DNA of 64,000 nt from Eledone cirrhosa (Eukaryota): positions 27,590,001 through 27,654,000 of the forward strand of contig OZ024753.1 of the NCBI GenBank assembly GCA_964016885.1, read 5' to 3'. The notes under the pieces were generated by a model, which saw nothing but the letters and a program-made list of their open reading frames with translations, had not been told where the DNA came from and did not search any database. The translations under genes and the position numbers were made by a program. The stretch's first letter is position 1. The number at the start of each line of letters is the position of its first letter. Shown here piece by piece: positions 26,567 to 46,765 of this stretch.

Positions 26567-28898
26567 AGATAATTTAATATATCAACTAACATAGGCGCAC
26601 AGATGCACGTCCATGCCAGCAAATACACAGGTTATGTCATAGTACCTAGGTGGTTCAATGCAGGAGGGTGCAGAACAATAATATAAAAGACGTAAAATAA
26701 GAAAATATTTTTTAAAAAATTTTTAAAAAATTTTTTTACTTACTTACTTAAACTTTCACTCCAACTAATTAGTTTCTGCAATGGGATAAAGACAGTTACA
26801 TAATCCAACTGTCGAGAATTCATTGCGTCATCAGGGAGTCTATTCTCAGCTGAGCCTCCAGGCAATGCGCGGACACTAGCGGCTCATATAAAAATAATAA
26901 TTCGGTAGAAAGAACAGCTAGGCGAGGACTGGATTCTATGTACTGAAATTCTCACTGCTTCTAGTCAAATGTCCGATTCTAAAGAATCAATCACGTGACA
27001 TAGAGGCTAGTTAGAAGGAATGGGATGGTAAGATGACTGACGCCTACTAACACCCCAAAAAAAATTTTGAAGTGGTTTTGGCAGGTTTGCTCGACAAATC
27101 AGTGATTTGGAGATAAATATAGATAATTTAATATATCAACTAACATAGGCGCACAGATGCACGTCCATGCCAGCAAATACACAGGTTATGTCATAGTACC
27201 TAGGTGGTTCAATGCAGGAGGGTGCAGAACAATAATATAAAAGACGTAAAATAAGAAAATATTTTTTAAAAAATTTTTAAAAAATTTTTTTACTTACTTA
27301 CTTAAACTTTCACTCCAACTAATTAGTTTCTGCAATGGGATAAAGACAGTTACATAATCCAACTGTCGAGAATTCATTGCGTCATCAGGGAGTCTATTCT
27401 CAGCTGAGCCTCCAGGCAATGCGCGGACACTAGCGGCTCATATAAAAATAATAATTCGGTAGAAAGAACAGCTAGGCGAGGACTGGATTCTATGTACTGA
27501 AATTCTCACTGCTTCTAGTCAAATGTCCGATTCTAAAGAATCAATCACGTGACATAGAGGCTAGTTAGAAGGAATGGGATGGTAAGATGACTGACGCCTA
27601 CTAACACCCCAAAAAAAATTTTGAAGTGGTTTTGGCAGGTTTGCTCGACAAATCAGTGATTTGGAGATAAATATAGATAATTTAATATATCAACTAACAT
27701 AGGCGCACAGATGCACGTCCATGCCAGCAAATACACAGGTTATGTCATAGTACCTAGGTGGTTCAATGCAGGAGGGTGCAGAACAATAATATAAAAGACG
27801 TAAAATAAGAAAATATTTTTTAAAAAAATTTTTAAAAAATTTTTTTACTTACTTACTTAAACTTTCACTCCAACTAATTAGTTTCTGCAATGGGATAAAG
27901 ACAGTTACATAATCCAACTGTCGAGAATTCATTGCGTCATCAGGGAGTCTATTCTCAGCTGAGCCTCCAGGCAATGCGCGGACACTAGCGGCTCATATAA
28001 AAATAATAATTCGGTAGAAAGAACAGCTAGGCGAGGACTGGATTCTATGTACTGAAATTCTCACTGCTTCTAGTCAAATGTCCGATTCTAAAGAATCAAT
28101 CACGTGACATAGAGGCTAGTTAGAAGGAATGGGATTTTTATATGAGCCGCTAGTGTCCGCGCATTGCCTGGAGGCTCAGCTGAGAATAGACTCCCTGATG
28201 ACGCAATGAATTCTCGACAGTTGGATTATGTAACTGTCTTTATCCCATTGCAGAAACTAATTAGTTGGAGTGAAAGTTTAAGTAAGTAAGTAAAAAAATT
28301 TTTTAAAAATTTTTTAAAAAATATTTTCTTATTTTACGTCTTTTATATTATTGTTCTGCACCCTCCTGCATTGAACCACCTAGGTACTATGACATAACCT
28401 GTGTATTTGCTGGCATGGACGTGCATCTGTGCGCCTATGTTAGTTGATATATTAAATTATCTATATTTATCTCCAAATCACTGATTTGTCGAGCAAACCT
28501 GCCAAAACCACTTCAAAATTTTTTTTGGGGTGTTAGTAGGCGTCAGTCATCTTACCATCCCATTCCTTCTAACTAGCCTCTATGTCACGTGATTGATTCT
28601 TTAGAATCGGACATTTGACTAGAAGCAGTGAGAATTTCAGTACATAGAATCCAGTCCTCGCCTAGCTGTTCTTTCTACCGAATTATTATTTTTATATGAG
28701 CCGCTAGTGTCCGCGCATTGCCTGGAGGCTCAGCTGAGAATAGACTCCCTGATGACGCAATGAATTCTCGACAGTTGGATTATGTAACTGTCTTTATCCC
28801 ATTGCAGAAACTAATTAGTTGGAGTGAAAGTTTAAGTAAGTAAGTAAAAAAATTTTTTAAAAATTTTTTAAAAAATATTTTCTTATTTTACGTCTTTT
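26567..28898. mobile_element. ORF-less HHR tandem element (retrozyme-like, family H), 554-bp unit: about 2.8 units (-) joined head-to-head to about 1.4 units (+) near 28135
   Basis: Units start at 26567, 27121 and 27675; 28135-28898 is the reverse complement of the unit. Confidence 0.9.
28190..28271 (+). ncRNA. Type I hammerhead ribozyme (family H); copies 28744-28825 (+), 26758-26839, 27312-27393 and 27867-27948 (-)
   Basis: ACUCC-CUGAUGA-C-GCAAUG...CAUUGC-A-GAAACUAAUUAGUU^GGAGU; palindromic stem III. Confidence 0.9.
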
Positions 28899-29062
28899 AT
28901 ATATATATATATATATATATATATATATATATATATATATATATATATATATATATATATATATATATATATATATAATATATATAATATATATATATAT
29001 AATAAATATATATATATATATAATATATATATATATATATAATATATATATATATATATAAT

Positions 29063-29646
29063 ATGATAATAAGGGCGCTGCGGAGTTGCAAATGGGCTAC
29101 ATATGAAAAAAGTTTGTCCTTCATCAGTGATCTTCCAACTATCATAGACATTTCATCGCTTTAAAGACCATATACCTCCGGTTGGTGCGAGCAACGGCTA
29201 AAAAAAGTCGTTGGGACACGTAAATAAAGGGGACGCGAGGGTAAACAAACAAAATGGTGAGGCAACAGAAAGTGAGGAAGAAGGAGACAAGTCCCAGATT
29301 TCTATGAATTTAAGTTCGGTGAAATCGTGAACGAGAGAATAAAGACCATCAAACCTGGTTGGAATGTGAGCAAGGAAGGAATTTCGCACAGGTCTAACGG
29401 GAGGAAGAAGGGGTCTGGTCTGCGAAATCGGTAAACATAAGTTCTGTGAAATCGTAGACGAGAGAGAAAAAATTCTGACCAGCTTGGCCGAGAATGTGAG
29501 AGAAAAGAGTTACTCACAGGTCAAACGGGAAGAAAGAGGAGGAGGAGGAGAGGTAGTGACAGAGAATGAGTGAGTGAAGGGTGAGGTGAGGAAGAGGCTA
29601 ACAGAGAGAGAGACTGCTAGAAAGGGTAAAGATACATAGAACGAAA
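29063..29646 (-). mobile_element. Diverged copy of the ORF-less 621-bp family I
   Basis: Aligns by eye with 30748-31327. Confidence 0.7.
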
Positions 29647-29754
29647 AATATATATAATATATATAATATACATATATATATATATATATATATATAATAT
29701 ATATATATATATATATAATATATAATATATATAATATATATAATATATATATAT

Positions 29755-29985
29755 AGTAATAATAATAAATTTGAAGAATAAAATCCAAAGAGGGCTCGAT
29801 AAGGATAAATATATATCAAATATATAAGAACCGTAGAGCAAATATTTATTAAAATAACAGATTAAAGTTTGAGAAAACAATCGCTGCTTTCACCCTTAAC
29901 GGGATCTTCTGAAACTAACAAAGTCAATCTGTAAACGCAGAAGTGGATCAAAAAACGTTGCAACCGGAGGAAGACAGGAAGACGA
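29755..29985 (-). mobile_element. pLTR 3'-end fragment of the PLE2 family
   Basis: Reverse complement of about 13021-13256. Confidence 0.8.
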
Positions 29986-44878: not shown

Positions 44879-44971
44879 TATATATATATATATATATATA
44901 TATTATATATATATATTATATATATATATATATATTATATATATATATATATATATATATATTATATATAC

Positions 44972-45662
44972 ACAAGGTTTAGTAAATAATGAAAAACTAT
45001 AGTAGGTAAAGTCAATTTTTAAAAATTTATTTTGAAACTTTTTCATTATTTACTAAACCTTGTTTATATTTGTTCTGGCTCGTTAATTTATTAACCCGCC
45101 ATTGAACCACATTGGCACTTTGTTGGACAATACATGCGTACCTTGGCGCCTTGTGCGTGAAGGGACGTATTTCATATTACTACTACCTCCACTAACGTTG
45201 AGAACAAACCGGGTCATTCCGACTGCTGCTGGCAACAGCGGTGGCTAGTTTGACCTACCTCCTTTTGCCTCTATCTTTGCTACGGCCCTTGATAAACCTG
45301 TTCTACATCATCCACTCTCATCCCAGGAACAGTTTTTGATAGCGCTAGTTTGTGATTTAAATTCAGGAATTTTATATTCTTTGAATGAAAAGAACCTTCT
45401 GACGAGAATCTCTCTTTGCAACGAAGGCCGTATGGTCTCCGTTTTATTTTTGGGATTCGAAACCGATCGGTAAAGGTAACTATAGTAGGTAAAGTCAATT
45501 TTTTAAAATTTATTTTGAAACTTTTTCATTATTTACTAAACCTTGTTTATATTTGTTCTGGCTCGTTAATTTATTAACCCGCCATTGAACCACATGGGCA
45601 CTTGGTTGGACAATACATGCGTACCTTGGCGCCTTGTGCGTGAAGGGACGTATTTCATATAT
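44972..45662 (+). mobile_element. Second insertion of retrozyme-like family E (483-bp unit x about 1.4) with a 25-bp 5' inversion
   Basis: Similar to 8653-9320; 44972-44996 is the reverse complement of about 45039-45063. Confidence 0.82.
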
Positions 45663-45861
45663 TATATATATATATATATATTATATATATATATATATAT
45701 TATATATATATATATATATTATATATATATATATATATATATATATACTATATATATATATATATTATATATATATATATATTATATATATATATATATT
45801 ATATATATATATTATATATATATTATATATATATATATATATTCTATATATATATATATAT

Positions 45862-46765
45862 AATAAAGAATTCATATCTAGTAACATATATATACATACA
45901 GATGCATATCAATGCTAGCAAATATATAGGTTTTGTCTTAATAACAGTGTGGTTCAATGCATGGGGTTGCAGAACAATAATATAAGAGACAGTGATTTTC
46001 TCAATGGCTTGGAATTCAGTACACGCTTCGCTATTTCCTATCCACTGAATTATTTTTTAATAAGTTTCCAGTGTCCTCACTTTGCCTGGAAACTTACATG
46101 AGAATAGACTTTCCTGACGACGGAATGCTTCTCTATATTATTCTTCGGAAAATATATTTACTCCATTCCAGAAACTAATTAGTTGGAAGTGATATTTTAG
46201 TAAGTAAGTTAATTTTATAATTTTCTTATTTTACGTCTCTTATATTATTGTTCTGCAACCCCATGCATTGAACCACACTGTTATTAAGACAAAACCTATA
46301 TATTTGCTAGCATTGATATGCATCTGTATGTATATATATGTTACTAGATATGAATTCTTTATTATTATCTCCAAATTATTTGTCGAGCAATATTGGCCAT
46401 GACTGCTGCTACGGTTGTAGGCAGGCCGCTGTCTTATTAGCAAACCACTTTCCACTGATTGACCGCGATGTCACGTGTTCGATTCTTTTTGAATTTGTCA
46501 CAGACGTAGAGGCAGTGATTTTCTCAATGGCTTGGAATTCAGTCCACGCTTCGCTATTTCCTATCCACTGAATTATTTTTTAATAAGTTTCCAGTGTCCT
46601 CGCTTTGCCTGGAAACTTACATGAGAATAGACTTTACTGACGACGGAATGCTTCTCTATATTATTCTTCGGAAAATATATTTACTCCATTCCAGAAACTA
46701 ATTAGTTGGAAGTGATATTTTAGTAAGTAAGTTAATTTTATAATTTTCTTATTTTACGTCTCTTA
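45862..46765 (+). mobile_element. ORF-less HHR tandem element (retrozyme-like, family N), 523-bp unit x about 1.5 plus 5' inversion; homologue of family H
   Basis: 45990-46240 repeats at 46513-46765; 45862-45989 is the reverse complement of about 46236-46365. Confidence 0.85.
46108..46190 (+). ncRNA. Type I hammerhead ribozyme (family N); copy at 46631-46713
   Basis: ACUUUC-CUGACGA-C-GGAAUG...CAUUCC-A-GAAACUAAUUAGUU^GGAAGU. Confidence 0.88.

Follow-up and report, generated by a model that had tools for sequence, protein, structure and literature searches.

A stretch of 64,000 nucleotides of the Eledone cirrhosa genome (contig OZ024753.1, positions 27,590,001 to 27,654,000; here the window, with positions counted from its first base) is AT-rich DNA crowded with (TA)n and (CA)n microsatellites and retrotransposon fragments, as is typical of animal genomes. 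Among these lie three related families of tandemly repeated units, designated H, N and K, each of which bears a hammerhead ribozyme motif. They are probably non-autonomous derivatives of the terminal repeat of a Penelope-like element (PLE), carrying a hammerhead with a structured, pseudoknotted loop II and moved by proteins of the Hydra clade of PLEs. The H unit measures 554/555 bp, and one indel is the only difference among its copies; the N unit measures 523 bp, with 4 differences over 261 positions between its two copies. H and N align along the whole unit at 69–70% identity, with 142 substitutions in 523 aligned columns (a background of 27%), and are sister subfamilies of one non-coding 523–555 bp unit. 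K, a 483-bp unit with hammerheads at 8688, 9171 and 45399, is a more distant homologue of both.

An earlier note on this DNA had treated 26567–46765 as a single span, but only 26559–28902 and 45860–46768 are H and N elements. The H element begins with a long minus-strand arm (26559–28135) of ~2.8 tandem 554/555-bp units with three hammerheads, whose 3' end enters (TA)n at a position we call site B. It stands head-to-head with a plus-strand arm (28134–28902) of ~1.4 units and two hammerheads, whose 3' end enters (TA)n at a second position, site A. The N element repeats this design with a short inverted arm on the minus strand (45860–45990), which has no hammerhead and ends at site B in (TA)n, and a plus-strand main arm (45990–46768) of ~1.5 units of 523 bp, ending at site A in (TA)n. 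One plus-strand K insertion (44966–45660) carries the hammerhead at 45399 and a short inverted arm at 44966–44995; the other (8653–9324, plus strand), with the hammerheads at 8688 and 9171, forms a head-to-head junction with the 5' end of a minus-strand Hydra-type reverse transcriptase–endonuclease element. All three families share one plan, in which a tandem arm faces an inverted arm and both ends lie in (TA)n.

The two end sites are homologous across families and flanked by hairpins. Site A lies just before a bulged hairpin (hairpin A, 28353–28376 on the plus strand, directly 3' of the site), which is found in H, N and K, with pairs changed in K and with variants among public contigs in the loop only. 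Site B lies ~100–120 nt further on, just after a long G.U-rich hairpin (hairpin B, 28401–28452 on the plus strand, ending just 5' of the site) that is predicted in all three families; single-sequence folds of this downstream region give z values of −0.9 to −2.0 in H, N and K. All seven arm ends of H, N and K fall at one of the two sites, and the three self-inverted insertions all have one arm ending at A and the other at B. Two further families of the window, V and R, likewise show two ends.

A search pattern combining the hammerhead core with the palindrome of stem III matches the window seven times (five H, two N) and never in 100 shuffles. The cores start at 26834, 27388 and 27943 on the minus strand and at 28195 and 28749 on the plus strand in H, and at 46114 and 46637 on the plus strand in N. 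In all seven copies the core CUGANGA and GAAA, U16.1 and H17 are intact, that is, the 11 conserved core positions plus the latter two. Stem I is open and 5–6 bp long, stem II has 6 bp, and stem III would have 3 bp in a monomer or 10 bp in a dimer. In the fourth H copy (28190–28271, plus strand), stem I pairs 28190–94 with 28267–71, the core occupies 28195–201, stem II pairs 28203–08 with 28246–51, and a C.A mismatch (28202/28252) separates core from stem II; GAAA lies at 28253–56, the palindromic stem III at 28256–65, and the predicted cut falls after U 28266. The fifth H copy (28744–28825, plus strand) is identical to it. The first N copy (46108–46190, plus strand, core at 46114) has its predicted cut after 46184, and in the second (46631–46713, plus strand, core at 46637) a C>A change at 46636 breaks the first pair of stem I.

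Much of what the earlier note had quoted is found again in the sequence: stem II reads GCAAUG/CAUUGC in H and GGAAUG/CAUUCC in N, and core position N7 is U in H and C in N. Its stem I sequences (ACUCC/GGAGU in H, ACUUUC/GGAAGU in N) hold for H and for the first N copy but not for the second, where the C>A change adjoins the core. The palindrome is indeed identical in H and N, although stem III proper comprises 10 nt (A15.1 to U16.1), the quoted 12-mer having taken in core A14 and U17. Absent from that note was the C.A mismatch, present in both H and N and followed by a G-C pair, as a result of which base pair 10.1–11.1 next to the core is not formed. The hammerheads tabulated by Craig et al. 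2021 (PMC8557442) offer precedents for both this mismatch and the predicted GUU cleavage site: GUU occurs in 10 of 25 Hydra motifs and a mismatch beside the core in 15 of 25 (14 U.U and 1 U.C), and C.A is listed for PLE-X1_cBra. A mismatch beside the core is therefore not disqualifying. The K hammerhead at 45399 has a canonical G-C closing pair and a palindrome unlike that of H and N, with the same arrangement of pseudoknot and loop-II hairpin. Overall, the H and N motifs are type I hammerheads of a known kind, that of PLEs and retrozymes with a short palindromic stem III. Rfam reported nothing at gathering score in the window and no hammerhead model on H or N up to E 10; what it matched on H and N by E value were unrelated microRNA and small-RNA models, which were rejected. 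In none of the 6 loci returned by a pattern scan of metagenome contigs did stems I and II enclose the core, and these were set aside as chance; a pattern scan of viral contigs gave no match.

The earlier note had argued from covariation between H and N for a conserved ribozyme fold. That the fold is under constraint at the RNA level is supported, but the pairs then cited amount to one double change in stem II and one two-sided insertion in stem I. Under the 27% background substitution, all six stem II pairs would be kept with P 0.07, and at least one double change would arise with P ~0.17. In stem I, the difference between H and N is best explained by the insertion of one pair and a change of C-G to U.G; when the stem is registered from the core outward, two apparent double changes emerge, but since a single two-sided insertion accounts for both, they were not accepted as independent evidence. 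Moreover, as H and N are homologous over the whole unit, the identical palindrome reflects shared ancestry, and the comparison is that of a single pair of lineages. Taken alone, the cited covariation in stems I and II is suggestive only. The support for constraint comes mostly from a hairpin upstream of the hammerhead, a hairpin inside loop II, the pseudoknot seen across families and the invariance of the core in public contigs.

The upstream hairpin, P0 (28143–28178, plus strand), has 10 bp and a 14-nt loop and differs from its N counterpart (46061–46096) by three compensatory pairs around a partly conserved loop. Loop II, 36–37 nt long in H and N, had been described as unrelated between the families; in fact both versions start with UUCUC, continue with a 23-nt hairpin in the same alignment columns and end in a UUUA linker. 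This inner hairpin, IIa (28216–28238, plus strand; 46134–46156 in N, where it is capped by cUUCGg), keeps six of its seven pairs between H and N and shows three double changes. Of the 17 pairs in P0 and IIa together, six are double-changed, where the null model gives 0.52 on average (P 1.5 × 10⁻⁵), and 32 of 33 hand-registered pairs are kept between H and N. Controls with slid partners gave 0–1 double-changed pairs against 7 (four rows, two lineages). Single-sequence folding of the hammerhead regions is weak, with z values of −1.5 and −1.0.

The UUCUC that opens loop II has its complement in a conserved GAGAA immediately 5' of stem I in both H and N, and a pseudoknot is predicted between 28182–28187 (plus strand) and 28210–28215, at the start of loop II. 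Its letters are identical between H and N, so that its support comes from other families. When the 10 bases upstream of stem I are set against the first 10 bases of loop II and Watson-Crick pairs are counted, 5–6 pairs form in all five of the families H, N, K, M (49655) and Q (52580), the letters being different in K, M and Q. Pairing the strands across families, H with N excepted, gives at most three pairs in 18 of 18 combinations, and in ten further hammerhead-like families from the window (20 copies) the count does not exceed four. The pseudoknot would hold stems I and II parallel. M and Q, both on the plus strand, have a U.U mismatch and a long loop II with the pseudoknot, and stem III of Q has 5 bp.

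Variation among public contigs gives a second view of the constraint. Part of the H unit is contained in 20 of 23 listed public runs, three of which contain half or more of its words. Four runs were compared over 28134–28480 at 80% likeness, yielding 820, 3, 21 and 0 contigs, and substitutions present at 3% or more were counted within 28180–28275. None of the 43 positions in the core, the C.A mismatch, stem III with the cleavage site, stem I and the pseudoknot is substituted, against 16 of the 53 others (Fisher P 3.5 × 10⁻⁵); in the pseudoknot strands no substitution is listed at 28182–28186 or 28211–28215. The IIa loop varies at six of nine positions. The 3' arm of P0 has N-like letters in most of the contig depth, with the matching 5' arm on a loose end in one run, and loose contig ends hold further versions of loop II that open with the same pseudoknot strand.

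Several observations weigh against the reading of H, N and K given at the outset. For the pseudoknot, shuffling within single families gives P values from 0.011 to 0.24, cross-family pairings reach five once G.U pairs are allowed, which blurs the contrast, and the five families had been picked out before the test; its invariance in the contigs, taken alone, amounts to 0 of 10 positions against 9 of 27 (P 0.079). The covariation P values are optimistic, because the structure was derived from the same sequences and H and N form one lineage pair. Among the contigs, one-base insertions without a listed partner occur in the 5' arm of stem I, and for 8 of the 23 paired-site alleles no change in the partner is listed; the variants are unphased, and the contigs are cut near 28275 at a masked repeat, so that nearby positions are perhaps under-called. 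An RNA-labelled coral-metagenome run, with a word share of 0.03 and no matched contig, is uninformative on host range or expression. The active folds lie 4–5 kcal/mol above the free optimum, only one of nine Xenopus retrozyme dimers cleaved in vitro, and no autonomous element bearing the H/N repeat was found within the window. Finally, retention of pairs in the contig variants is not significant, 11 of 23 alleles at paired sites being able to pair against a null mean of 9.2 (P 0.14). This last result would also fit the idea that the compensatory changes are DNA-level corrections of inverted repeats in a decaying satellite, free of selection on RNA, since short inverted repeats can be homogenised by template switching. 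Such correction leaves unexplained the invariant unpaired core, a pseudoknot common to unrelated sequences, the G.U-rich, strand-specific hairpins and the cUUCGg tetraloop, and we regard it as very improbable.

How the ribozyme would act bears on why the units are in tandem. The 10-nt palindrome forms a self-duplex of −9.0 kcal/mol, against +1.5 kcal/mol for a forced 3-bp monomer hairpin. In constrained folds of a two-unit H transcript, with the pseudoknot left out of the model, the dimer scores −201.0 and two monomers −200.3. Published PLE and amphibian hammerheads cleave better as dimers. Dimeric action, which the earlier note had drawn from the palindrome, is thus plausible on the literature and the self-duplex, although the folds of the two-unit transcript are tied. 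A stronger version would make the hammerhead an obligate dimer whose need for a partner maintains the tandem layout. The stability of the self-duplex, the equally perfect though different palindromes of K and M, and the better cleavage of published dimers argue for it, whereas the tied folds and family Q, which combines the same pseudoknot with a monomer-competent 5-bp stem III, speak against it, as does the Anolis Poseidon element, for whose insertion in vitro hammerhead cleavage was dispensable (Frangieh et al. 2024, PMC11167929). We see obligate dimerisation as possible but doubtful. The reason for the tandem arrangement offered in the earlier note is weak: partial tandems with an inverted, 5'-truncated arm are the standard PLE layout, and the Naiad and Chlamys clades, whose members lack canonical hammerheads, also make partial tandems. 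Since the layout is explained by the mechanism of retrotransposition, ribozyme dimerisation may exploit it and need not be its cause.

Whether the H and N hammerheads are active at all is uncertain, and the hammerhead of the Anolis element needed protein (PMC11167929). The GUU site, the C.A mismatch and the A14–U17 pair that can extend the palindrome are all expected to slow cleavage, and this counts towards a fold kept as a binding or priming structure for a PLE protein, with little or no self-cleavage. The eight inactive Xenopus dimers point in the same direction, as does the Anolis system, in which RNA ends at the cleavage site are lacking and cleavage was dispensable for insertion in vitro (PMC11167929). 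A pure binding or priming role is nevertheless improbable, because the unpaired catalytic nucleotides are invariant while the loops vary, and because the published Hydra motifs share the GUU site in 10 of 25 cases and a mismatch at the same position in 15 of 25 (PMC8557442). Selection on catalysis, as the earlier note proposed, may be acting on these sequences.

The units hold no ORF (open reading frame), the longest stop-to-stop stretches being 47 and 84 codons, and tblastn of the window's PLE proteins against them gave no significant match. Without an ORF for reverse transcriptase (RT) plus a GIY-YIG endonuclease at its C terminus in cis, they are not autonomous here. Candidate helpers lie close by: six endonuclease-bearing ORF fragments (3895, 10168, 23891, 37318, 51331 and 54005) have a CxCx5C linker, and two a DKT motif, features that, alongside insertion into (TA)n, are the defining marks of the Hydra clade according to Craig et al. 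2021 (PMC8557442). A Pfam search of eight neighbouring PLE fragments matched one, weakly (GIY-YIG, E 0.0007, below the cut-off). Head-to-head junctions with Hydra-type ORF elements occur at K (8653) and at Q (near 52550), in Q with the truncated 5' end of the ORF, which suggests shared machinery. One could alternatively take H and N for the terminal repeats (pseudo-long terminal repeat/3' untranslated region) of autonomous PLE families with ORFs elsewhere, the copies here being 5'-truncated insertions. In layout and in targeting of (TA)n they match truncated PLE copies, and several small hammerheads of the window sit in the 3' flank of endonuclease ORFs. However, the complete head-to-tail units of 554, 523 and 483 bp show no ORF remnant between hammerheads, and the ORF-linked hammerheads of the window have no pseudoknot. 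This origin seems to us unlikely. No named autonomous family with a terminal repeat homologous to the unit was found within the window, or by short motifs in the supplement of Craig et al.

The preferred reading, a non-coding derivative of a Penelope-like terminal repeat (a non-long-terminal-repeat, or non-LTR, retrozyme), can be set out as a mechanism. The sequence, the layout and the pattern of constraint are observed; that the pseudoknot forms, that the RNA is cleaved and dimerises, that Hydra proteins mobilise it and that any of it is circular is inferred. H, N and K would be moved in trans by (TA)n-nicking proteins of Hydra-clade PLEs. Loop II would form a small structured domain, its first bases pairing with the flank 5' of stem I and the inner hairpin coming next in the sequence. 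Slow cleavage of read-through transcripts after GUU would take one of two routes: two units would pair through their 10-bp palindrome, or a monomer would be aided by the pseudoknot and possibly by protein. Unit-length or multimeric RNAs, possibly circular, would then be reverse-transcribed from both nicked target strands, starting at the two sites that flank hairpins A and B, and the products would be tandem plus head-to-head insertions. A wider proposal, which we advance tentatively and judge unlikely, is that a subgroup of invertebrate PLE-dependent retrozymes has rebuilt the hammerhead into a pseudoknotted form with a branched loop II that evades standard searches, with a monomer/dimer switch in cleavage and two downstream hairpins setting paired RT starts on the nicked (TA)n strands, the RNA at times differing between the two strands (K or Q with a Hydra-type element). 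Some of the Naiad PLE 'half-core' motifs spaced 35–50 nt might share this architecture.

The window is rich in other motifs of this type, with ~15 hammerhead-like families in 64 kb, none of them caught by Rfam at gathering score. One of these families (1543+, 9569−, 13101+, 29911− and 32237+) reads CAGAAGA for CUGANGA (U4A) in five of five copies, with stems I–III otherwise present, and its motif sits in the terminal repeat of the Hydra-type element at 10168–12171. In family R (34210−, 41643− and 42517+), too, a C.A mismatch adjoins the core and stem III is palindromic; its extended stem II is very long, and the 5' flank pseudoknot is absent. Family T (19510− and 20131+) has an A.A mismatch in the core, a palindromic stem III and a poor stem I, and seven of its loop II bases are complementary to bases after the cleavage site. 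The hammerhead at 59041+ is decayed, has a long loop II and flanks a Hydra-type endonuclease fragment (58302–58670) on its 3' side, and small hammerheads at 1811−, 26407+, 32650−, 39871+ and 50282− sit in the 3' flanks of PLE ORF fragments.

Further repeats and mobile elements complete the picture of the window. Endonuclease–RT ORFs of long interspersed nuclear elements (LINEs) occupy 14082–17219, 46902–48735 and 61153–63309; one is uninterrupted for 1045 codons, several adjoin (TA)n, and from their motifs we take them to be CR1/L2-like. A minisatellite at 56214–57577 has 14 copies of a unit of ~91 bp. Two tandem families of ~610–620 bp (42729–44231 and 20299–21928), partly ~70% alike, lie between (TA)n tracts, and three core scans, which miss core variants, found no hammerhead in them. 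A two-copy repeat at 44387–44877 includes a weak Hammerhead_HH9 match (44662–44732, E 8.7) and a possible U3-A8 core variant; part of the repeat, presumably, resembles the 5' end of U2 small nuclear RNA, with no Rfam match.

Among known systems, the hammerheads of Hydra-clade PLEs (Craig et al. 2021, PMC8557442) come close: they too are of type I, with a near-palindromic stem III of 3–4 bp and (TA)n targeting. Their loops II measure 3–10 nt, in contrast to the 36–37 nt of H and N with an inner hairpin and a pseudoknot to the 5' flank, and H and N have no attached ORF. In the supplement of that paper, five H/N/K hammerhead or hairpin motifs were not found and a sixth occurred once, in an unrelated coding stretch, in a text whose line breaks can hide matches. 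The minimal dimer-type PLE hammerheads (Cervera and de la Pena 2014, PMC4209133), for which a review (PMC6765202) cites Lunse et al. 2017, share the palindromic short helix III, an extra base after A9, a long helix II and a location in tandem and inverted terminal repeats; they were described as having no recognisable tertiary contacts, unlike H and N with their predicted pseudoknot and an extra A opposite the extra base. Pseudoknotted hammerheads as such are known from Perreault et al. 2011 (PMC3088659), where ~40% of those described use a pseudoknot, needed for fast cleavage, formed, as predicted for ours, by a helix between the surroundings of stem I and loop II. To that design H and N add the palindromic short stem III, the branched loop II and a retrotransposon setting. 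No account of a long pseudoknotted loop II in PLE hammerheads was found in the literature searched, which left outside Lunse 2017 and Arkhipova 2017, either of which may cover it, and the preprint supplements.

In the organisation of the unit, the non-LTR retrozymes of animals come close (Cervera and de la Pena 2020, PMC7229834; Li et al. 2026, bioRxiv 10.64898/2026.07.22.740005). Their AT-rich tandem units are non-coding, each has a single type I hammerhead, and PLEs have been proposed to move them. At 483–555 bp, the H, N and K units compare with a typical size of ~300 bp (PMC7229834) and a range of 51–972 bp (10.64898/2026.07.22.740005). H, N and K differ from these retrozymes in having a predicted pseudoknot instead of loop–loop contacts, PLE-like head-to-head arms and two defined end sites. 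For the end sites, the parallel is the Anolis Poseidon PLE (Frangieh et al. 2024, PMC11167929), in which two reverse-transcription starts downstream of the hammerhead set the genomic tail, RT starts in a stem-loop, and both target strands are cut and extended. Its tail is 30–40 bp long, as against ~100–120 nt over two hairpins in H, N and K, whose unit is non-coding. A long pseudoknotted loop II hides such hammerheads from Rfam and from short-loop descriptors, so that PLE hammerheads may be undercounted, and the statement that they lack tertiary contacts may not hold generally. The two common end sites flanking conserved hairpins also offer a small non-coding test substrate for how PLEs choose their RT starts and build inverted insertions. 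The class is a known one; what marks this variant is the long, pseudoknotted and branched loop II together with the long two-hairpin tail.

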